From NCBI GenBank assembly GCA_964549505.1, contig CAZJVD010000004.1, forward strand, positions 102,545 through 166,544: DNA of 64,000 bases. Reading direction: 5' to 3'. Each line of letters opens with the position of its first letter. Position 1 is the first letter of the stretch. Of the stretch, positions 12,848-49,687 are shown one piece after another. The DNA comes from an uncultured Oligoflexia bacterium. GTDB lineage: Bacteria > Bdellovibrionota > UBA1018 > CAZJVD01. The position numbers and the translations under genes were made by a program. A model generated the notes under the pieces. That model saw nothing but the letters and a program-made list of their open reading frames with translations, did not search any database and had not been told where the DNA came from.

Positions 12848-13687
12848 ATGACCGTCGAAGCGGTTGGCTTTCTTCAGGACACGGCCTTTCGTATTTTGGA
12901 TCGCTTTCGACGCGAGCGATTGTCATTGGCACTTTCGGTGCGGCGACTTCGTTTTGAGTCATTGAGCGCCTGTCCCTCGTGCGCGTCATCGTCTGAGGCG
13001 TGGAGTGTTGGTCCCGAGGGCCGTGACTTTCGAGCACGTATTCGAACATCCGAGTGCACGCGCTGTTCACTGGTTTTTCAAAATCCCCGCCTGACGTCCG
13101 AATCAGCTTCGATGTTTTATCGGCGTTACTATCGCAACTCGTTTCATACGAGGCAGAAGTCGGAACAGCTTTTTGCGCGGTCGTGCCGGCGAGGGAGTGA
13201 GATTGTAAAGTTTCTCGGCCAGGACTTGGATGGTGTGCGATCTGCTCTCGAAGTCGGATGCGGGTACGGCGGAATTCTCGTCGCGCTTGCTCGGCGTGGG
13301 ATTGATGTGCAGGGCTGCGATGAAAATCCGATGTCGGTTTCTGTTGCGACAGCGCACGGAGTTCCTGTCACGCTTGGTGGATTCGATGCGCTGCCCGAGA
13401 GGCGCTACGATTTGATTATTCTTTCCCATGTTCTCGAGCACGTGGATCAGCCTGTTCCGTTTCTTGAGCGGCTCAAGTCGTTACTCGCGCCGGGAGGTAG
13501 CATCTTTATTGAGGTCCCACGTATCGTGGCATCGACGGAGGATCGGGTTTTCCAGTTAGGGCACGTGCTTTATTTTGATTCTAAGTCTTTAGCGAACGTA
13601 TTGAGTAGAGTAGGGCTTTCAATTCAGAAACTCGAGGACCGTCGAGACGTCCTTCGTCGGCTTGTTACAGCGACGGCCGTATCATGA
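12848..13687 (+). CDS. Class I SAM-dependent methyltransferase
   Basis: Motif I 'LEVGCGYGGILVALARRG'. No further assignment. Confidence 0.65.
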   Translation: MTVEAVGFLQDTAFRILDRFRRERLSLALSVRRLRFESLSACPSCASSSEAWSVGPEGRDFRARIRTSECTRCSLVFQNPRLTSESASMFYRRYYRNSFHTRQKSEQLFARSCRRGSEIVKFLGQDLDGVRSALEVGCGYGGILVALARRGIDVQGCDENPMSVSVATAHGVPVTLGGFDALPERRYDLIILSHVLEHVDQPVPFLERLKSLLAPGGSIFIEVPRIVASTEDRVFQLGHVLYFDSKSLANVLSRVGLSIQKLEDRRDVLRRLVTATAVS

Positions 13688-13743: not shown

Positions 13744-13821
13744 CGGGGTGTGGCGCAGCCTGGCTAGCGCACTTGCTTGGGGTGCAAGAGGTCGTGGGTT
13801 CAAATCCCGCCACCCCGACCA
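13744..13821 (+). tRNA. tRNA-Pro (anticodon GGG)
   Basis: Cloverleaf read by eye: acceptor CGGGGTG/CACCCCG, anticodon arm CTTGC-TTGGGGT-GCAAG, T-loop TTCAAAT and an encoded CCA. Confidence 0.8.
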
Positions 13822-13835
13822 TAGCTCATAAAAAA

Positions 13836-13886
13836 GTAAAGAGGCAGGTCTCGCTTGCGAGATGACCTGCCTCTTTACTTTTTTAT
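13836..13886 (+). terminator. Rho-independent terminator after tRNA-Pro
   Basis: 15-bp perfect stem GTAAAGAGGCAGGTC/GACCTGCCTCTTTAC followed by T8 'ttttttat'. An A-tract sits upstream, so it may be bidirectional. Confidence 0.7.
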
Positions 13887-14023
13887 GAGCGGATGGAGTG
13901 ACGGAGATGGAACTCAGGCGTGGGTTCCTCATTTTTAGCAGGATGCTAAAAATGCGCGCGAGCCCTGAGCGAAGCGAAGGGTCGAGGCTAGGATGGCCGA
14001 GACAAATCCCGCCACCCCGACCA
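13848..14023. repeat. 176-bp direct repeat copy 1, ending in a 21-bp copy of the tRNA-Pro 3' end (att-like)
   Basis: Identical by eye to 14778-14953. The last 21 nt 'caaatcccgccaccccgacca' equal tRNA-Pro 13801-13821. Confidence 0.85.
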
Positions 14024-14037
14024 ATGCTCGACCGCGG

Positions 14038-14064
14038 CATTTCGATACTGAATGTATCGAAATG
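14038..14064. repeat. Perfect 11-bp inverted repeat (CATTTCGATAC-tgaat-GTATCGAAATG)
   Basis: It sits 15 bp after repeat copy 1 and 60 bp downstream of the higA-like stop on the minus strand. Confidence 0.8.
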
Positions 14065-14123
14065 AGCGCGGCGCATTTTCAACGACAGCCAGTACCTTAA
14101 ATCCGGAGCTTCAATCACAGTTG

Positions 14124-14444
14124 TTATGCCGCTTCCACAGTCACTTTCAATTTAAGTCCACCTTCTCGGACCGCGTCTTGGAGTGCGAGTTGAACTAAGA
14201 CACTCGGAGGATGGCCAAAGGCTTTGGCAAATCTCGCAGCTTGTTCTGGGCTGACCAGTCTTCGTCCTTTTTCCACGTCACAAAGATATTGCCTGGAAAC
14301 ACCAAGTTTTTTGGCAAATACCGTCTGAGACAGGTCATCTCTTAAGCGGAGTGACTCGACAGCCATGCCAAAAGTCAGAGGACCATCGAGAAGCCCTTCA
14401 ATAAACTCACGCTCCGAAGAGCTGTTCGATTTTTTTATAGTCAT
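14124..14444 (-). CDS. HigA-type antitoxin (XRE-family HTH)
   Basis: 'TVFAKKLGVSRQYLCDVEKGRR' is a classic XRE helix-turn-helix. It lies downstream of and overlaps a RelE/HigB-like toxin ORF. The start may be the internal Met at 14366. Confidence 0.7.
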   Translation of the reverse strand: MTIKKSNSSSEREFIEGLLDGPLTFGMAVESLRLRDDLSQTVFAKKLGVSRQYLCDVEKGRRLVSPEQAARFAKAFGHPPSVLVQLALQDAVREGGLKLKVTVEAA

Positions 14445-14715
14445 GCTTGTTTACCTCTTCAATCAGGACAAATTCGATCGAATCCCGTACGATTCGATAA
14501 TATCCACGATAACCCAACGAAAGCCTAAAAGAGCGGATTCCCTTCAATTTTCCGTGCAGTGGTTCATCATGATAACCAGATATTTTCTGGATTTCCGCTA
14601 GACCCACTTCACGCACGGTTCGCTCCCAAGTCGCATAAGCCTGGGCCACTTGCTTTGGTGCCCTTTCTAGGCTCTTACGCGCCCGTTTGGTTGAACGAAC
14701 CAAGGTGATCATCAC
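14407..14715 (-). CDS. RelE/ParE-superfamily toxin (HigB-like, toxin-first arrangement)
   Basis: 102 aa. 'HGKLKGIRSFRLSLGYRGYYRIVRDSIEFVLIEEV' resembles the RelE C-terminal core and the protein has the size expected for this family. Confidence 0.65.
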   Translation of the reverse strand: MMITLVRSTKRARKSLERAPKQVAQAYATWERTVREVGLAEIQKISGYHDEPLHGKLKGIRSFRLSLGYRGYYRIVRDSIEFVLIEEVNKHDYKKIEQLFGA

Positions 14716-14777
14716 AAATCCATTATTACGTCAAATAGACGTACTTGTCAATAAATTTAGTAGTGGAGGAAAATCGC

Positions 14778-14953
14778 GTCTCGCTTGCGAGATGACCTGC
14801 CTCTTTACTTTTTTATGAGCGGATGGAGTGACGGAGATGGAACTCAGGCGTGGGTTCCTCATTTTTAGCAGGATGCTAAAAATGCGCGCGAGCCCTGAGC
14901 GAAGCGAAGGGTCGAGGCTAGGATGGCCGAGACAAATCCCGCCACCCCGACCA
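14778..14953. repeat. 176-bp direct repeat copy 2, ending in the tRNA-Pro 3' 21-mer
   Basis: It matches 13848-14023, and the two copies bracket the toxin-antitoxin pair. Confidence 0.85.
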
Positions 14954-15060: not shown

Positions 15061-15909
15061 TTACATTCCCTTCTGATAGCTAATCTCTCGGATCTTAGGC
15101 GTCTCTGTATTGAACGATTCAAGATAGTCGAGGTAAATTCGAACTCGTGGCTTGTTCATTACCGCGATTTCTTTACCCCCAACAGGTAGTACCTGAGGCT
15201 CGCGAAGCGCCAGATTTACAAGAAGCCAGCTCTGGGAAATCGATAAGGTAGTGCCTTTTGTGCAATGCTTATCATCAATCTTAAGACATCCAACCAAACG
15301 AAGGTCTACGGTTCCGTCGAAGTCGTAATCAACAGCAACCTGAATACGATAAGGACTGACGTCATCCCCAAAGTTAACGCTATCTACACGTGCATCCAAG
15401 CCATTATGGCGAACATGCTCAATTTGTTCGTCGGATAGCGCGACTTTTCCGATCATCGGAGTGTCCATGGATACATCGGGAATGAACCAATTCTTGGTTT
15501 GCTCCACAATTTCGTCCCCAAGCAACTCAACCGAAGCAATCCCAAATGGTTTGTCGGGGCCAGTAAAGGTTATTTTGACTTCTTGGCCAGTTCTAAATGA
15601 TTTTTCTAATTTTCTCTGCTCGGCGTCGGAAACATCATAGCAACCACCGCAATTCGAAATCTCCAAAGCAGGCGCCTTCGCACAGACGTTGAAACCCCAG
15701 TCAGCTGCCGGGTAATCGTAGTTTCCTTGCTTGTTGAGAGAAAATAAAGGGCCGCTGTTGCGGACAGCCGAAAGGCCAACAACCTTTCCTACATAAGGAT
15801 CAACTGCTGACTGTTGGGCGGCCGCGGTCGCGCCCCAAAGCAAAAGGGCAGTGTTTATGGAATGAATCACACTTCTTTTTCCGCTGAAAATGCTCGTTAA
15901 AATGTTCAC
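15061..15909 (-). CDS. Secreted hypothetical protein, paralog A of a two-member family
   Basis: Signal peptide 'ALLLWGATAAAQQ'. It aligns by eye along its length with ORF 17012..17881: 'YVGKVVGLSA', 'FPAADWGF', 'QRKLE.SFRTGQEVKI' and C-terminal 'TETPKIREI.Y..GM'. Confidence 0.6.
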   Translation of the reverse strand: MNILTSIFSGKRSVIHSINTALLLWGATAAAQQSAVDPYVGKVVGLSAVRNSGPLFSLNKQGNYDYPAADWGFNVCAKAPALEISNCGGCYDVSDAEQRKLEKSFRTGQEVKITFTGPDKPFGIASVELLGDEIVEQTKNWFIPDVSMDTPMIGKVALSDEQIEHVRHNGLDARVDSVNFGDDVSPYRIQVAVDYDFDGTVDLRLVGCLKIDDKHCTKGTTLSISQSWLLVNLALREPQVLPVGGKEIAVMNKPRVRIYLDYLESFNTETPKIREISYQKGM

Positions 15910-16145: not shown

Positions 16146-17030
16146 TTGACGCCTATCGTTAACCACCCATCTGTTATGAGAGCCTTTTTCTCTGTTCTAG
16201 CAGCTCTGTCCTTTTGGGCATCTGCGTCTGAAATCTGTTTGGCCGAAGACGACGGTGCGATACAGGCGTTGCTTAGGGGGGCCCGCGATGCATCTGAAGC
16301 CCATCGCGTGCTTGATGAGCACTTCGGGCGATTTCTCACCTACGCCGATAGACCCACGACAAGCCGAAAATTGAACAGGTTCGTCGTTCGGGTTGGGCGA
16401 GCTGGTCTGGAAAGTTTGCCGGATAGAGCGCTGTTTGCGACTTTGGTTCGGGCAACCCCTGACATCCACCAAGGATTTCGTCGTGACTGGGAATCACAGC
16501 AAACTCAATTGACAGCGCATGATCGAAGGTGGCTTGGAATTCTCCTTGCAGCCGAGTTAACTCGATTGGGCCTAACCCATCATTATTATGAAGACCGGCC
16601 CCTGAGACATGATGGAGTCCGATACGTTTCGACTGCTTTCGCATTACCGATTGCTACAGCATTGTATTTTGCGACAGGCACCTTAGAGGTAATTAAGGAT
16701 AATTTGTATCTAGATCCCATGATCAGCCCTGTTCATCAGTTGAATTTTTTCGTAGCCGCTTTGGCGGTTGGTTATGCCCTCGGGAGGAGCGTTGAATGGG
16801 CTTATGCTCGAATCGCACTTAGAAGTACACGGTCGTCTTTAGAAGAGCTCCTTGGCTTTATCGAAAGAAACGATCTCGAGGGTTCTGTGGATAACGCCGC
16901 TTCTTACGCTGAACATCACCAAGCTCGGCTTCAACAGTACCTTCGGTATGCTTTGGGGCCGGATGAGTCGCCTCTCTGTAAAACTAAATTGGCGGCCGGC
17001 CACTCGAGTCTTCACATGCCCGTGAAATAG
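16146..17030 (+). CDS. Hypothetical protein (N-terminal signal/TM, helical)
   Basis: 294-aa ORF between the two paralogs with consistent coding character. No motif recognised. Confidence 0.45.
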   Translation: MTPIVNHPSVMRAFFSVLAALSFWASASEICLAEDDGAIQALLRGARDASEAHRVLDEHFGRFLTYADRPTTSRKLNRFVVRVGRAGLESLPDRALFATLVRATPDIHQGFRRDWESQQTQLTAHDRRWLGILLAAELTRLGLTHHYYEDRPLRHDGVRYVSTAFALPIATALYFATGTLEVIKDNLYLDPMISPVHQLNFFVAALAVGYALGRSVEWAYARIALRSTRSSLEELLGFIERNDLEGSVDNAASYAEHHQARLQQYLRYALGPDESPLCKTKLAAGHSSLHMPVK

Positions 17031-17881
17031 CCGATTTCTCGAATCTTTGGAGTTTCAGTAGCGAACCATTCTAAGTAGTCCAGACGAATCCGAATACGCG
17101 GAATCCACTTCTTCTCGCTCTCGAGTTTATCCAGCTTCAGTAACCTTCGTATGTCATCAGCTAACGGACGTCGTTCCAAAGTCTTTCTAAAGGGTTCTGA
17201 TAGAACGAGGTCAACGAGGAGCGACGTTTGCGAAGTCGACAAGGTTGTGCCGGATACGCAGTCCTTATCCTCCGGCCCCAGACATCCCACCAAACGAAGG
17301 TCGGCGACTTCATCAAAGTTATAATCAATCGCAAAGTGAAATCGAAACGGGCTGATCTCGTCGCCCATCTGACTGGACAGTAGGCCAGCCTCTAAACCGT
17401 TATGACGGACGTACTCTAGATATTCGTTCGACAGCGGCACACGCGCGATCATCGGGACAGCTGACAGCTTACTCGGTCGGAGCCAGTCGGTGCTTTCCGC
17501 GATTTCGTCACCCACCAGATCAACGGACTCAATATCAAACACTTGATCTTTAGGAGTGTGGCCGATCTTAACTTCCTGACCCGTTCGAAAAGACGTTTCC
17601 AACTTTCGTTGGTCGATTTCCGAAAGGTCGTAGCATTTGCCGCAATCTGAGTAATACGCCGGCGGAACAGTCCGCTGACAAACGCTGAAACTCCAATCGC
17701 CCGCAGGAAAAACGTAGCTGTCTTTCTTGTTGAGAGCAAACACGGGCCCACAGTCGCGCTTGGCCGAGAGACCCACAACCGTTCCAACATAGGAATTAAC
17801 ATCAGCTTCCTGGCCGAATGCGGGTGCACCACAGACGAGGAAGCCCAGTAGCGGAGCGAGGTTCAACGTACGGACATTCAT
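17012..17881 (-). CDS. Secreted hypothetical protein, paralog B
   Basis: Signal peptide 'LLGFLVCGAPAFGQ' and the same conserved blocks as 15061..15909. Confidence 0.6.
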   Translation of the reverse strand: MNVRTLNLAPLLGFLVCGAPAFGQEADVNSYVGTVVGLSAKRDCGPVFALNKKDSYVFPAGDWSFSVCQRTVPPAYYSDCGKCYDLSEIDQRKLETSFRTGQEVKIGHTPKDQVFDIESVDLVGDEIAESTDWLRPSKLSAVPMIARVPLSNEYLEYVRHNGLEAGLLSSQMGDEISPFRFHFAIDYNFDEVADLRLVGCLGPEDKDCVSGTTLSTSQTSLLVDLVLSEPFRKTLERRPLADDIRRLLKLDKLESEKKWIPRIRIRLDYLEWFATETPKIREIGYFTGM

Positions 17882-32318: not shown

Positions 32319-32408
32319 GGAAAGGTGGCCGAGCGGCTGAAGGCGCACGCTTGGAAAGCGTGTTATGGGTAACACCATACGAGGGTTCGAATCCCTCCCT
32401 TTCCGCCA
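32319..32408 (+). tRNA. tRNA-Ser (anticodon GGA)
   Basis: Acceptor GGAAAGG/CCTTTCC, anticodon arm CACGC-TTGGAAA-GCGTG, a long variable arm and an encoded CCA. Confidence 0.75.
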
Positions 32409-32441
32409 TTTTTAAATACCGGTATTCAGGAATTCCAGTAT

Positions 32442-32732
32442 TTAACCAGCCGCGCTTCTCTTCTTCTGAAACACGGCCTTTTCAAGTTTGGAAAGGCGGC
32501 CTTCCATTGATGACTCTGTAGCCCCAGAAGCGGCATCCCGAAGCACTTTATTAATCAAGGTCTGGTATTTCGTTCCGTTGTTCTCTGCCATTTCGCGAAA
32601 CCGCATGAGCACATCTTCCGGAATGACAATAGAGATCCGATGCCCAATTTTAGCTGGCTCGAAATCGTCTTCCGAAAGAATATCCTTCTTTCCATACTTG
32701 ATATCTGCTTTCTCAGCCTTTTTGATACTCAT
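32442..32732 (-). CDS. Ribbon-helix-helix (BrnA/CopG-like) putative antitoxin
   Basis: The C-terminal 'ISIVIPEDVLMRFREMAENNGTKYQTLINKVLRD' matches the RHH/BrnA-type signature. The start was trimmed to 'MSIKKAEK'. Confidence 0.45.
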   Translation of the reverse strand: MSIKKAEKADIKYGKKDILSEDDFEPAKIGHRISIVIPEDVLMRFREMAENNGTKYQTLINKVLRDAASGATESSMEGRLSKLEKAVFQKKRSAAG

Positions 32733-32946
32733 TCCAAACCTCCAAGAGATACGTTTTCCGGTTCGCCAAGTACTTCTGAATGCGATTAAGGTCTCGTTCC
32801 GTAAAGCCGCGAGAGAACAAACAGGCCAATGTTTCGATCTCAAATTTCGCCTCGTAATCAGGAGCCAGGGCATGAACATGAGGCGGTTGATGATCCTTCG
32901 GATAAACATAAATTTTAATGTTCCCGATGTAGATCACCGCTGGCAT
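32713..32946 (-). CDS. DUF4160-like small protein (putative toxin partner)
   Basis: 77 aa. 'IKIYVYPKDHQPPHVHA' is the hallmark block of DUF4160. It overlaps the downstream RHH gene by 20 bp. Confidence 0.5.
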   Translation of the reverse strand: MPAVIYIGNIKIYVYPKDHQPPHVHALAPDYEAKFEIETLACLFSRGFTERDLNRIQKYLANRKTYLLEVWNEYQKG

Positions 32947-33007
32947 ACATATTAATATATATCAAAATATATATTTGTCAAGTTTGGGTGTCATCTATAG
33001 GTCAAAT

Positions 33008-33499
33008 ATGGTGAGAATTGCCATGAGCCACGTACACACCCGAACCTGTCACTGCGGAAATCTCAGATTGGTGTTCTCCACCGGTAAAGAAACCAAAGAC
33101 CTATTCTTTAGGGAATGTCAGTGCAGTTACTGTACGCCACAGGGAGCGATTTACTGTACGGACGCCGAGGGCAGTCTTGAGATCCATTTAGACAGGAACG
33201 GTGATGTCGGTAGGTACAGTTTTGCTCTGCGGACGGCGGAGTTCTTATTTTGCAAGACTTGCGGTTGTTATCTTTGCGCAGTTCAAGAGAAGGAGGGGAA
33301 AACAAAGGCCGTCATCAATGCCAGATACTTTCCGACACTTCTCCCGACAGTTCTCAAGGCTGCCGACAACATCCGTTCCGTAAACTTTGATGGCGAATCG
33401 GCTGAGGCACGCACAGCTCGTCATGACAAGAACTGGACACCCGCCGAAGTGATAAACGGTCGGTCGAGCGAGAACTCCCCAGAGTTTAAAAAAAGTTAA
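33008..33499 (+). CDS. GFA (glutathione-dependent formaldehyde-activating/CENP-V-like) family protein
   Basis: Zn-binding Cys pattern 'CHCG...CQCSYC...CKTCG'. Start uncertain (33008 or 33023). Confidence 0.6.
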   Translation: MVRIAMSHVHTRTCHCGNLRLVFSTGKETKDLFFRECQCSYCTPQGAIYCTDAEGSLEIHLDRNGDVGRYSFALRTAEFLFCKTCGCYLCAVQEKEGKTKAVINARYFPTLLPTVLKAADNIRSVNFDGESAEARTARHDKNWTPAEVINGRSSENSPEFKKS

Positions 33500-33561
33500 A
33501 CTTTGTGCCTTTACTCCCGATGAGACGGAATAACGGGGGAAATTCGGTGATCAATCATAAG

Positions 33562-33981
33562 ATGCTCAAGATGCTTGGCTGTGTTTCTTTGTTCCTAACC
33601 TTGTTTTTTTCTCATGCCGCAAACGCTGCTTGCACTTGTGCTCCGCCTTACAATGATTGGCTCCACCCCTACGATGAGGAAACTCTTGTAAAGGTATCCG
33701 ACACCTGCACCCTGTTCCCGCAAGGTTCGTGTTTTGCTAATTCTGGTCTTTGTTACTACAGCTGCGATGGCTACGGGATGCAACAGCCTTGCATCACGAA
33801 AACAGCTCTGAACGGGACAAAAAGTTGCGGCTGTCCGGTTGCTCCTTTTGGTTGTCAGGTAACCAGCAGTGACTGCAATAGCTTCCCCTCTGATCACTGT
33901 ACTGGCATGTGCGAGTGGACTTTCACTTACACTATTTCGGGAAGCACCGGTGGGGCGATTACTTACTGCAACCAGCAGTAA
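33562..33981 (+). CDS. Small secreted Cys-rich hypothetical protein
   Basis: Signal peptide 'LGCVSLFLTLFFSHAANA' and 18 Cys in about 120 mature residues. Confidence 0.45.
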   Translation: MLKMLGCVSLFLTLFFSHAANAACTCAPPYNDWLHPYDEETLVKVSDTCTLFPQGSCFANSGLCYYSCDGYGMQQPCITKTALNGTKSCGCPVAPFGCQVTSSDCNSFPSDHCTGMCEWTFTYTISGSTGGAITYCNQQ

Positions 33982-46547: not shown

Positions 46548-47120
46548 GTGTTGACGATGCGCTACAACCCTCTGGCTGGCCTTATGGCAGCGTTTGGACT
46601 ACTGTTCGGCCCCATGACAGCGACAAGCAAGCCGGCAGCCGCCCTCTACAGTTTTAAAGTGAAAACCATCACAGGCGAAGAGACGACCCTCGAGCCCTTT
46701 CGAGGTAAGGTTCTTCTGATTGTGAACGTTGCTAGCCGTTGCGGTTACACACCTCAGTATGAGGGACTTGAAAAACTGCAGAAGGAGCTTGGACCGCGTG
46801 GTTTTGCGGTTCTGGGTTTTCCATGCAACCAGTTCGGCGCTCAAGAGCCAGGAAGCGAAGCTGAGATCAAAGGGTTCTGCGAGCGGACCTTCAAAGTAAC
46901 GTTTCCGATGTTTTCGAAGATCGATGTGAACGGTGGCGATGCTCATCCCCTGTATGAGTTTCTTAAGAAGGAGAAAAAGGGGATTTTAGGTACCCAAGCG
47001 ATCAAGTGGAATTTCACAAAATTTCTGATCGCAAAAGACGGCGCTGTCGTCGATCGTTACGCGCCCCAAGACAAGCCCGAAGACCTGCGCGCGAAGATCG
47101 AAGCCGAACTCAATCGTTGA
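46548..47120 (+). CDS. Glutathione peroxidase (secreted/periplasmic)
   Basis: 'LIVNVASRCGYTPQY' (Cys active site), 'FPCNQFG' and 'WNFTKFLI'. N-terminal signal peptide. Confidence 0.88.
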   Translation: MLTMRYNPLAGLMAAFGLLFGPMTATSKPAAALYSFKVKTITGEETTLEPFRGKVLLIVNVASRCGYTPQYEGLEKLQKELGPRGFAVLGFPCNQFGAQEPGSEAEIKGFCERTFKVTFPMFSKIDVNGGDAHPLYEFLKKEKKGILGTQAIKWNFTKFLIAKDGAVVDRYAPQDKPEDLRAKIEAELNR

Positions 47121-48390
47121 GAATCGCTTTCGCATAATAAGCCATGACTTCGGGGTCGGCGCGAAACGACTTCCGGCTCGCTCCGATCACATGTAGATGT
47201 TTGGCCGTCCGGGCCCGACTCATTGCCACGTAGGCTTGGCCGGGTTCCCAGAGGTTAGTCAAATCAATCCACGGTTCTTGAAGAGTCGCTCCCTGTGCTT
47301 TATGAATCGTGAGCGCATAAGCCAGCGAAACCGGAAAATTATAAGCCGACGCAACGGGTTCACCGTCACCATCGAGCTGTGTGAAATGCGCGCGCTCGAG
47401 CATCGCTTCAAAACCTTCTGACAACTGCACGCGTAACGAGTCACCTTCTGTGCGCGGCAGTGACGTCACCCATCCCATCGTGCCATTGACCCAACGACCA
47501 CGCGGATCGTTCTGTCTGAGCATAATGAGAGCACCGGGTTTCAGCGCGAGCATCGGGGGGATCGGACAGTTGCGTTTGAGCTGTTCGATCGATTCAGCTT
47601 TGCCGACATAGAGCGTGGGCATTTCTTTGAGAGGACCTTTGAGTTTTTCGACTTCGATTCGATTGAGTTCGTCGACGCGTTCACGATGTGCGAGCAATAC
47701 GGTCGCCGCCTGCGATCGTTCGGCAAGATCACTTCGGCCACGAGCACGTAGGAAACGTTCGAGGCGATGGGAGTAACTCCCGGCCCGCGCGTCTTCTAAG
47801 GCGTCGAGGAGTTCCTGATCTTGGGTTCGCATGCATGTTTTTAAAAACACGACTTTTGGATTCGAGTCCCGCCAAGCCTGAGACTGAAAAGCCCAGTCCC
47901 GTGAACGCTCACGGCCTCCGGCGTTCCAAGGCTGCACGGGCGGGAGCTGCGCAAAATCGCCGATGGCTAAGATCCGGAGTCCGCCCCAAGGTGCTTTGCT
48001 CTCGCGGGCCGTGCGCGCGAGCTCTTCTGCCGTGTTCAGAACTTCGCCCGAGAGCATCGACACTTCATCAATGATGATCTCTTTTGCTTTTCGAATGCGC
48101 CGTAACGTTTTTGCACTCTTGAGCGCACGTCGAATGGCAGCGTCCGGTCCGCCTTGTAAAATTCCAAGTCCAAAAAAACTATGAAACGTTCGACCGCCAA
48201 CTAAAACCGCGGCAGCTCCGGTACTCGCCAGAACGGGGCGTTCCTTTTCGCTCAAGGGTTTTTCTTTGAGATAGGCACGAACCAGCGTGCTTTTCCCAGA
48301 GCCCGCCGATCCCGTGAGAAAGACGTTGTCGTCGTAGGTCTTTAAAGTGTCGAGTGCAGTAGCTTGATCGGGTGAAAGTTCGATACTCAT
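47110..48390 (-). CDS. Pif1/RecD-like P-loop helicase (AAA_30 + UvrD_C_2-type)
   Basis: 'LTGSAGSGKSTL' Walker A, 'IIDEVSML' Walker B and a C-terminal 'ALTIHKAQGAT'/'YVAMSRAR' helicase motif. It follows the patatin gene after a 19-bp gap. Confidence 0.8.
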   Translation of the reverse strand: MSIELSPDQATALDTLKTYDDNVFLTGSAGSGKSTLVRAYLKEKPLSEKERPVLASTGAAAVLVGGRTFHSFFGLGILQGGPDAAIRRALKSAKTLRRIRKAKEIIIDEVSMLSGEVLNTAEELARTARESKAPWGGLRILAIGDFAQLPPVQPWNAGGRERSRDWAFQSQAWRDSNPKVVFLKTCMRTQDQELLDALEDARAGSYSHRLERFLRARGRSDLAERSQAATVLLAHRERVDELNRIEVEKLKGPLKEMPTLYVGKAESIEQLKRNCPIPPMLALKPGALIMLRQNDPRGRWVNGTMGWVTSLPRTEGDSLRVQLSEGFEAMLERAHFTQLDGDGEPVASAYNFPVSLAYALTIHKAQGATLQEPWIDLTNLWEPGQAYVAMSRARTAKHLHVIGASRKSFRADPEVMAYYAKAILND

Positions 48391-48409
48391 GAAGCACTTA
48401 CGACGTCGC

Positions 48410-49687
48410 CTAGACGGTCTGAGAAGTCAAATGTGTAACAGGAGCGTTCGCTCGTTCGACACCTTGGAACTCGTAGCGTCTCAGAACGTCAGCCGCTGCA
48501 CGAAAACCCGCGCGTACGATCTCGTTCATGCGTCGCGGGTCAAACGCAAAGTGTTCCTGAAAAAACAACTGCGCGTCGCCGGGGCGAGGATGAATGTAGA
48601 CAATTTCGGCGTCTTTCCGGACTCCGAGATCGTTTTCAACGGTTTCGATCAACTCAGAAGCCAGCTTCAGTGAAAGCCCCTTTTTTTCAAAGAACTGCTC
48701 GATCGACGCATAGGCCTGTTTGGCATTCATGCGTCCGCGTACGACCGATTGCACACGCTGTTCGATCGCCAAGTAGATCGATTGGATCATGATGGCGGGC
48801 AGTCCGCGTTCGGACAATCGACCAAACTCAGGACTGAGGTTGTAGGGTTGGTGCGTGTAACTGGCGAAAACGAGATCGGCCCCACGCTCGAGAGCGATAT
48901 GAGTTGATAACGTATCGCGCACTTCACCATCAATCAGGTCCGTCGGGCCTCGATCCGTAAGATCGATGGTCGTCGGTGAAAAGATAAAGGGGAGCGACAC
49001 ACTCGCAGCACACGCTTTGGAAATCGCGATATCCGACCGGAACGTGCAACTCAGGTCGTGTGTCGAGCGCACTTCATGAACGGGACCAAACGCGATCTTT
49101 GCCGACTGATTGAGCTCGGTCGCCACGACAAAGAGTTCAACAGCCAAGTCTCTAAAGTTTTCTGTTTCTAAAACGCGTTCGGCGAGAAACCGTTCGATCC
49201 CGCGCGTGGAAAACAGTCCCGGCGATCGAAACCAACGCATTTCAAAGAGACTGCCCCAGTCCCCGCGCATCGCAAGTCGAAGAAAATCACGCGTCTGTGC
49301 CAGTCCCCGCAGGGGAACCTTCGAAAGATCGTTCCGTAGTGCAAACACGGTTTTGAGATCGAGCCTCGGCAATACCCGAGGAACGCGATCGATCGCCGAG
49401 CGTTCGCCATGCGCCGGATCAAATGAAAAGAAGATGTTCTCAAGGGAGTAGCCCGACGCCAGGTACGCCGCGATCAGGGCGCCGGCACTCGAACCGACAT
49501 AAGTAGCGACCGTTTGTGCGGGTTTGGTGATAGGTGACGATTTCAGGCCACCTCGGAAAACGAAACCCCGTTCGCGCAGGGCGAGCGCGACTCCGAGGTG
49601 AAAGGCGCCGGCTTTGACGCCTCCGCCACTGCAGACCATGGCGACTTTACGACTCGCTTGAATCGGAATGCGGTTTTGGATTCGCAC
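48410..49687 (-). CDS. Patatin-like phospholipase
   Basis: 'CSGGGVKAGAFHLGV' oxyanion/Gly-rich loop, a 'GSSAG' nucleophile elbow and the catalytic-dyad Asp region 'DGE'. Confidence 0.8.
   Translation of the reverse strand: MRIQNRIPIQASRKVAMVCSGGGVKAGAFHLGVALALRERGFVFRGGLKSSPITKPAQTVATYVGSSAGALIAAYLASGYSLENIFFSFDPAHGERSAIDRVPRVLPRLDLKTVFALRNDLSKVPLRGLAQTRDFLRLAMRGDWGSLFEMRWFRSPGLFSTRGIERFLAERVLETENFRDLAVELFVVATELNQSAKIAFGPVHEVRSTHDLSCTFRSDIAISKACAASVSLPFIFSPTTIDLTDRGPTDLIDGEVRDTLSTHIALERGADLVFASYTHQPYNLSPEFGRLSERGLPAIMIQSIYLAIEQRVQSVVRGRMNAKQAYASIEQFFEKKGLSLKLASELIETVENDLGVRKDAEIVYIHPRPGDAQLFFQEHFAFDPRRMNEIVRAGFRAAADVLRRYEFQGVERANAPVTHLTSQTV

Follow-up and report, generated by a model that had tools for sequence, protein, structure and literature searches.

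A toxin-antitoxin operon between direct repeats that end in the 3' part of tRNA-Pro(GGG): a probable trace of eroded integrative elements in an uncultured Oligoflexia bacterium

The stretch of DNA considered here, called the window throughout, comprises 64,000 nt of contig CAZJVD010000004.1 (positions 102,545 to 166,544 of the forward strand; assembly GCA_964549505.1) from an uncultured Oligoflexia bacterium. It carries an intact tRNA-Pro(GGG) gene whose last 21 nt, referred to as the core, recur twice downstream, each time as the end of a 176-nt direct repeat, and the two repeats enclose a toxin-antitoxin (TA) operon. In our reading, to which we assign a probability of about 0.58, the locus is the eroded trace of one or more tyrosine-integrase elements that integrated at the 3' part of the tRNA gene, from the T-loop to the CCA end, and that now resemble a cis-mobilizable element (CIME). 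This figure covers the eroded-element reading in general, with a history of tandem copies as its default; a history in which a circle was inserted into a resident repeat is counted separately and is weighed below.

Exact copies of the core, CAAATCCCGCCACCCCGACCA, start at positions 13801, 14003, and 14933, as found by a pattern search of the window. No further site is present in the 64 kb with up to three mismatches, none appears in 100 shuffles, and a scan of the window for a degenerate fourth core with at least 15 of the 21 positions matching gave no credible copy. Three exact cores are thus found where the chance expectation is 0. The presence of the tRNA 3' end in three copies had been proposed in a first-pass annotation of this DNA, and the coordinates hold in both ARAGORN and the pattern search. 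The core extends from the C of the T-loop TTCAAAT through CCA, and its start lies at what we take to be the classic crossover position of tyrosine integrases, at which the tRNA is regenerated. A block of identity from the T-loop or the anticodon loop to the tRNA's 3' end is reportedly (Williams, 2002) a known sublocation of integrase crossover. The tRNA gene itself stands intact beside the direct repeats of its 3' end, as is expected for a tRNA-targeting integrative element.

Copies 2 and 3 of the core each terminate one of the direct repeats, and the 155 nt of the repeat outside the core are designated X. The two repeats are spaced 930 nt apart and agree at 176 of 176 positions, so that the direct repeats of the first-pass annotation are 100% identical on exact comparison, an identity that is partly assembler-dependent. 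That annotation had also called the repeat otherwise non-tRNA, which needs to be corrected: X holds the motif AGGCGTGGGTTC, which agrees with the tRNA at 12 of the 13 positions directly 5' to the core, namely the variable loop, the 5' half of the T-stem, and the TTC. Between this motif and the core there are 75 unrelated nt. In shuffles of X, this specific 9-mer has a p value of ~0.001, and any 9-mer of the 5' part of the tRNA one of 0.04. Judged by its sequence, X looks like the 3' third of a tRNA in which the T-loop has been split at the crossover position of T-loop-type integrases.

The two edges of the repeat are of a different kind. The right boundary lies exactly at the CCA end, whereas the left boundary is not an attachment-site (att) type of feature. 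It falls at position 13848, inside a perfect hairpin with 27-bp arms and 3 nt before its loop. The hairpin starts 2 nt past the end of the tRNA, is preceded by an A-run and followed by a T-run, and looks like a bidirectional terminator that belongs to the tRNA gene itself. Because the edge of the repeat is inside the hairpin, the second copy of the repeat lacks the left arm and retains just the loop and the right arm. The duplication of 155 nt outside the core and the position of the left edge in the terminator hairpin imply that duplication of the core alone is insufficient and that a second step is needed. In the earlier proposal of integration at the tRNA, the duplication of an att core that leaves a TA-only remnant is accordingly the part that stands as best supported, while the identity over 176 bp is not explained by core duplication alone.

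The DNA specific to the cassette has a GC content of 0.467, compared to 0.536 for the window, and contains two overlapping minus-strand open reading frames (ORFs) and nothing else, in line with the earlier description of a lone toxin-first RelE-like/XRE-HTH pair between the repeats. The toxin comes first and the two ORFs overlap by 38 nt, an overlap that is also seen in the homologues; together with the helix-turn-helix (HTH) antitoxin and a promoter containing a palindrome, all parts of a type II HigBA-like architecture are present. The proteins score somewhat below the curated thresholds. The toxin reaches 19 bits against Pfam ParE_toxin (PF05016, cut-off 23) and 27.7 bits against TIGR02385 RelE_StbE (cut-off 27.9), and the antitoxin 32.3 bits against NCBIfam antidote_HigA, below the equivalog cut-off of 47.7. 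A comparison of the toxin with the PDB sequences gave no match, and several of its 139 homologues are called HigB or RelE/StbE by their sources. The ATG-start form of the toxin is on record only in the source contig and in a 1032-bp contig of an independent assembly discussed below, the GTG-start form not being on record. Of the five TA loci compared, four have the promoter palindrome GTACGTC-N5-GACGTA(C) in exact form, and the contig labelled L044 has a degenerate version; the palindrome is kept across organisms having ~70% DNA identity (L033-L038, L039, L040, L045, and the window), and is presumably the operator of the antitoxin. The TA operon is, as far as its sequence tells, intact with its own promoter, and the unit now most likely only maintains itself.

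Table 1. Features of the tRNA-Pro(GGG) locus, in positions of the window
Feature	Position	Strand	Basis or remark
Intact tRNA-Pro(GGG)	13744-13821	+	ARAGORN; Rfam tRNA model, 63 bits
Core copy 1, last 21 nt of tRNA-Pro(GGG)	13801-13821	+	Pattern search
Perfect 27-bp inverted repeat, 13-nt loop	13824-13890	none	Repeat search; folds as a continuous stem
Direct repeat copy 1, X (155 nt) + core copy 2 (14003-14023)	13848-14023	+	Repeat search, 100% identity
T-arm 5' motif in X, AGGCGTGGGTTC	13916-13927; again 14846-14857	+	Sequence
Perfect palindrome inside X, 11-bp arms, CATTTTTAGCA-GGA-TGCTAAAAATG	13930-13954; again 14860-14884	none	Repeat search
Second perfect palindrome, 11-bp arms, CATTTCGATAC-TGAAT-GTATCGAAATG	14038-14064	none	Repeat search
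Cassette-specific DNA, 754 bp, GC 0.467	14024-14777	-	Homology limits against five other TA loci; GC values
TA module proper	14123-14751	-	Homology limits; unique sequence of 99 nt and 26 nt on its two sides
Antitoxin, 106 aa, XRE-type HTH, HigA-like	14124-14444	-	Pfam HTH_31 6e-11, HTH_3 6.5e-10
Toxin, 101-102 aa, RelE/ParE-like	14407-14715	-	Profile scores and named homologues
Sigma-70-like promoter TTGACA-18-AATAAT (11/12)	14722-14751	-	Promoter scan
Palindrome GTACGTC-N5-GACGTA within the promoter	14727-14744	-	Aligned by eye in 5 TA loci
Direct repeat copy 2, X + core copy 3 (14933-14953)	14778-14953	+	Repeat search; junction sequences
Putative gene-less unit, 202 bp			26 nt + X + core
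Putative TA unit, 930 bp			Sole cargo a self-regulated toxin-first RelE/ParE-like + HTH operon

The homologues of the TA pair provide the connection to integrases. At the DNA level, homology between the window and five other TA loci is limited to 14123-14751, i.e., to the promoter, operator, toxin, and antitoxin, which identifies the TA pair as a portable module. Homologues that are 76-79% identical lie directly beside tyrosine integrases in two contigs. In L040, from an AT-rich metagenome-assembled genome (MAG) labelled Xanthomonadaceae, genes for a tyrosine integrase and an HTH_17 protein come after the TA pair; in L044, the toxin has the integrase directly upstream, and the TA pair is ~1 kb away from a tRNA-Glu gene. 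Compared with each other, the two integrases show 36% identity (E 2e-47). In a third contig, L039 (MAG GCA_023657465.1), the TA pair is accompanied by integrase pseudogene fragments, ParA, and iterons, and the island terminates with 48 nt from the 3' part of tRNA-Pro(GGG) (positions 44-91), a fragment that starts in the anticodon loop and has the same orientation relative to the TA pair as in the window. No full tRNA gene was found in the L039 stretch retrieved. The iterons of L039 form two clusters with a 16-bp period at positions 1440-1910, and the AT content of the sequence is high for a genome with a Xanthomonadaceae label. In groundwater contigs of Bdellovibrionota, the TA pair has further TA pairs as neighbors and neither a tRNA nor an integrase. 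On the basis of these sequences, the TA family is repeatedly carried by tyrosine-integrase islands, in at least one case at tRNA-Pro(GGG).

A CIME is recognized by att repeats on both sides and by the lack of integration and transfer genes. Here, copies of the core flank each of two units that seem to be stacked head to tail, each closed on the right by X and the core, and neither contains mobility genes. The association of the TA homologues with related integrases in L040, L044, and L039 lends indirect support to an origin of such a CIME by deletion from an ICE or IME (integrative and conjugative, or integrative and mobilizable, element). By analogy with such elements, the present unit would be classed as non-autonomous and CIME-like. 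A parent element carrying X was not found in the collections searched.

We infer the following history. An element carrying an integrase and the TA pair, of the kind seen in L040 and L044, would have integrated at the core; its integrase and other genes would then have been lost by deletion, and the addictive TA module would have outlasted them, because cells that lose it are poisoned. The X arm common to both units points to the same type of element and to tandem accretion, or alternatively to re-integration of the TA unit as a circle carrying X. The second step demanded by the repeat edges could have taken either of two routes. In route (i), two tandem copies sharing the hairpin-X arm would each have been cut down by deletions, one of which had its endpoint at the hairpin tip. 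In route (ii), X and the core would have been resident, and a 930-bp circle [X-core-TA] produced by aberrant excision would have been re-inserted through the core or through the 176-nt homology. Looping-out of a 930-bp circle could still occur between the 21-nt cores, or between the 176-nt repeats through RecA; such an event would be counter-selected by the toxin, the TA pair penalizing its loss.

Several observations weigh against the eroded-element reading. The Pfam scan of 27 ORFs revealed no recombinase in the 64-kb window, and a tblastn search of the window with the L040 and L044 integrases gave no integrase remnant, the best hit (E 0.18) being at the level of noise; the earlier remark that no integrase is visible nearby is hence borne out for the window. 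The GC content of X (0.542) is like that of the genome, X starts inside the putative terminator of the tRNA, and a long hairpin follows the tRNA-Pro gene also in the best available relative, all of which fits a resident chromosomal X. X was found nowhere else in the collections searched, which makes its status as the arm of an element a matter of interpretation, and its perfect identity may be inflated by repeat collapse in the assembly. The tRNA fragment of L039 is of the 48-nt anticodon-loop type and derives from a different tRNA-Pro sequence, rather than being of the 21-nt T-loop type. Finally, the nearest LpxC homologues are at most 56% identical, too distant to demonstrate a genuinely unoccupied site or to date the event.

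The chromosomal setting bears on the last of these points. The window is chromosomal, containing rho, prfA, murA, ruvCAB, lpxC, an S-adenosylmethionine (SAM) methyltransferase gene, and tRNA-Pro, with acs, ligA, and radA further on. The LpxC value above was obtained among 5.8 billion proteins, the homologues with names being called Bdellovibrionales or Oligoflexia, and a GTDB scan with LpxC gave nothing closer than 45% identical. The best relative, L046 (GCA_947379915.1), is distant, with an LpxC that is 56% identical, and keeps the synteny murA...ruvCAB-lpxC-tRNA-Pro(GGG), its tRNA being identical at 74 of 78 positions. It has a single 3'-end core, no X, no TA pair, and a different set of downstream genes. 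The conserved block thus ends at the tRNA, and at the depth of L046 a duplicated structure is not the ancestral state.

The assembly of the locus deserves a closer description, since short-read assemblies break up when a repeat of less than 200 bp surrounds a TA pair, and structures of this type can thereby be concealed or generated. In an independent megahit assembly (k=139) of the ENA sample ERZ27284378, in which exact-protein look-ups identify the same organism and blastn confirms the coordinates, the locus is distributed over three contigs split exactly at the repeat. L001 stops 139 nt into X, L003 begins 139 nt before the end of X, and L002 has a length of 1032 bp, that is, 139 + 754 + 139. 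With A and C denoting the left and right chromosomal flanks, this graph fits the order A-X-TA-X-C and, equally well, a chromosome A-X-C together with a 930-bp circle, the expected products of excision. Both copies of X form one node of the graph, which makes the 100% identity true partly by construction; both this identity and the order A-X-TA-X-C are partly the assembler's resolution of a collapsed repeat. A 197-kb NCBI contig holds the toxin, the methyltransferase, and RuvB together, and with the flanking genes and the toxin on one contig the integrated form is accepted as the main state.

The same graph is the starting point for two other explanations. According to one of them, the structure is an artefact of assembly or population: the repeats are a single collapsed node, and the sample would contain a chromosome without the cassette together with a separate TA molecule, another strain, or several tandem TA-X copies. 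The breaks of L001, L002, and L003 at the repeat and the identity over the full 176 nt are what a collapsed repeat would give. We nevertheless regard this explanation as very unlikely, in view of the 197-kb contig just mentioned, of the fact that no linear path other than A-X-TA-X-C includes every edge, and of the lack of a replication function on a 930-bp circle, which must hence be integrated most of the time. The other explanation, which corresponds to route (ii), is a Campbell-type insertion into a resident X: the series tRNA-hairpin-X-core, including an old att relic, would be long-standing, and the circle would have formed by an aberrant excision, similar to that of lambda-gal, from an element carrying an integrase and the TA pair, with breakpoints at the hairpin tip and just upstream of the TA promoter. 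Insertion of this circle duplicates exactly the stretch common to the circle and the target, and both edges of the repeat are thereby obtained in one step, the right one being the point at which circle and flank cease to agree, at the end of the core, and the left one a position in the hairpin unrelated to att. The genome-like GC content, which is found in X and not in the TA segment, the long hairpin downstream of tRNA-Pro in L046, and an assembly graph readable as chromosome A-X-C plus a circle X-TA are all in its favor. An earlier integration is still needed, however, to account for core copy 2 and for the T-arm fragment in X, and the absence of X and of a second core from L046 means that, at the depth sampled, X does not count among the old conserved features. 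On balance we consider this history unlikely, though one that deserves to be kept in mind.

X and its surroundings are rich in inverted repeats. The palindrome inside X (13930-13954) is a candidate protein-binding site or hairpin, as suggested by its sequence. The second palindrome (14038-14064) lies downstream of the stop codon of the antitoxin, 15 nt to the right of core copy 2, such that core copy 2 is flanked by the two palindromes with 11-bp arms. A 9-bp inverted repeat, AAAATGCGC (13949-13957) and GCGCATTTT (14071-14079), is also present on either side of core copy 2, at distances of 46 and 48 nt; it resembles arm-type sites of attP, with a chance expectation of ~0.1. The 133 nt that follow the terminator (13891-14023) are predicted to adopt a closed multi-branch fold, in which the 5' end is paired with the core. 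This 5' end contains TGGAGTG, similar to the 5' strand of the acceptor stem, CGGGGTG. The fold has a z-score of -3.5, and 1 of 200 shuffles folds as well. The complementary strand gives a z-score of -3.4, and with the fold equally strong on both strands, the signal reflects the symmetry of the DNA and its palindromes rather than a strand-specific RNA.

This result bears on the earlier suggestion that the repeat could encode a short transcript. The hairpin and T-run on which it was based, GGAACTCAGGCGTGGGTTCC TCATTTTT, are indeed present in both copies of the repeat, whereas the transcript itself gains no support beyond the predicted fold: the Rfam scan returned no family for X, only the tRNA itself and spurious matches of miRNA models to the terminator hairpin, and the z-scores are equal on the two strands. 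A reading of X as a small RNA is therefore not supported. A weak promoter-like sequence, TTGTCA-18-GAAAAT (9/12, a chance-level match), is located at 14745-14774 on the plus strand, divergent from the TA promoter and directed toward repeat copy 2. A transcript from this site would reach the hairpin and T-run (14839-14866) after ~60-80 nt, which would allow for a short transcript from copy 2 only.

The fold and the palindromes would acquire another meaning if X and the core together formed a structured tRNA-like or attC-like site, recognized as folded single-stranded DNA or RNA by a recombinase encoded elsewhere, with the TA unit being an active and mobile mini-cassette. The closing helix similar to an acceptor stem and the split T-arm would then belong to an integron-like system that uses the 3' end of a tRNA as its site. 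The closed 133-nt fold, which few shuffles equal, the pair of palindromes around core copy 2, and the trimming of the cassette to within 26 nt of the TA promoter are consistent with such a scenario. On the other hand, the equal z-score of the other strand traces the fold to DNA palindromes, X has no Rfam family, and neither attC R boxes at its ends, nor intI, nor a cassette array are seen. In addition, the collections searched hold no second X, so that there is neither covariation nor a sign of spread, and the scenario appears quite improbable. An integron cassette in the strict sense was rejected: R'' (RYYYAAC) and R' (GTTRRRY) boxes are missing in X and at its ends, matches to them occurring only inside the TA genes, and there is no intI or attI and only a single cassette instead of an array.

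X could also be thought of as a dispersed repeat, similar to repetitive extragenic palindromic (REP) sequences or miniature inverted-repeat transposable elements (MITEs), that is present here twice by chance. Its richness in palindromes would agree with this. X occurs only twice in the 64-kb window, however, and both copies are fused precisely to the tRNA 3' core, which does not support such an alternative; terminal inverted repeats and a target-site duplication are also missing. Outside the window, a blastn search with 13822-14953 against phage and plasmid collections gave no match, and in viral contigs the palindrome pattern of X, the non-tRNA core pattern, and the toxin protein were all unmatched. 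In the JGI metagenomes, a search for the core not preceded by T returned two genuine tRNA-Pro(CGG) genes and one chance match in a high-GC coding region, and a protein collection searched with the peptide of an ORF encoded by X, as a proxy for X, yielded no candidate. X and the core thus have no match in the phage, plasmid, and viral collections searched. The dispersed REP/MITE-like unit at non-tRNA sites, which had been put forward in the first-pass annotation as the finding that would speak against an att duplication, was seen neither in the window nor in the collections searched, and we give this explanation almost no weight.

Returning to the reading of the locus as eroded integrative elements, close parallels exist among known systems. 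CIMEs and the tandem accretion of integrative elements have been described for the ICESt1/ICESt3 family (PMC5704250). As in these, the unit found here is bounded by att repeats at the 3' end of the target gene, lacks integration and transfer genes, and stands in tandem with another (PMC5704250). It differs in that the units are far smaller (0.93 and 0.2 kb) and have a single TA operon as cargo, in that the identity between them reaches 155 nt past the core, and in that no helper is known, mobilization being conceivable by analogy only. In Dehalococcoides, tandem islands at ssrA are delimited by ~20-bp repeats of the ssrA 3' end, and fifteen of them have no integration module and were proposed to be CIMEs (PMC3146451). 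Here, too, units follow one another downstream of a small-RNA gene, and ~20 bp of the gene's 3' end delimit each of them. The Dehalococcoides islands, in contrast, are kilobases long and carry rdhA genes and a module of the serine-recombinase type, and many comparators are available for them, as opposed to the single locus here. The description of the locus as unusual was, in the light of these integrase-less, att-bounded remnants stacked at tRNA and tmRNA genes (PMC5704250, PMC3146451), overstated; the locus is most likely a known kind of genomic scar.

The survival of the TA pair by itself can be compared with TA modules that stabilize integrative elements, such as mosAT of SXT (PMC2654960) and, as it is cited in PMC5704250, sgiAT of SGI1. 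Acquisition of TA pairs via mobile elements, followed by streamlining of the linked genes, has also been proposed (PMC13617665). A lone surviving TA pair fits both addiction and this acquisition-then-streamlining model (PMC13617665, PMC2654960). The resemblance to mosAT and sgiAT consists in a type II TA pair that belongs beside the integration module of an island and is expected to outlast its neighbors as the island erodes. The differences are that the island itself is gone here, that the toxin is a divergent RelE/ParE-like protein just below the curated cut-offs, and that addiction would be ascribed to it by analogy.

TA cassettes are also known from chromosomal integrons, an example being higBA in the Vibrio superintegron. 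They share with the present locus a single promoter-bearing TA operon of ~0.9 kb between palindrome-rich repeats of 100-180 nt. Unlike in these cassettes, R''/R' boxes, intI, attI, and an array are absent here, and the repeats end in the 3' end of a tRNA and, instead of being diverse attC sites, are identical to each other and in direct orientation.

A number of further features of the window should be mentioned. The SAM-dependent methyltransferase gene (Methyltransf_23, 12848-13687) is located between lpxC and tRNA-Pro; since lpxC is directly followed by the tRNA in L046, this gene, too, is specific to the lineage. Just past core copy 3, two paralogous proteins of ~285 aa, apparently secreted and with no Pfam family, are encoded on the minus strand (15061-15909 and 17012-17881) within a stretch of lower GC content (14.9-18.7 kb, GC 0.49), which could be older acquired DNA. 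At 32319-33981, a kilobase of low GC content (0.46) containing three small ORFs comes after a tRNA-Ser(GGA) gene, two of the ORFs being without a Pfam match and one having a weak, sub-threshold match to GFA; no repeat of the tRNA-Ser 3' end was found in the window. Finally, a PIF1-like helicase is encoded beside a patatin-like phospholipase (47110-49687, minus strand), and the two may be a defence-type gene pair.

If the eroded-element reading is true, the locus provides a clean and very small example of how a tRNA hotspot erodes down to an addictive TA module and its att arms. The host belongs to a deep-branching lineage that is Bdellovibrionota/Oligoflexia-like, in which the biology of mobile elements is almost unknown. 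The locus would matter more only if the 930-bp unit were mobile in trans.

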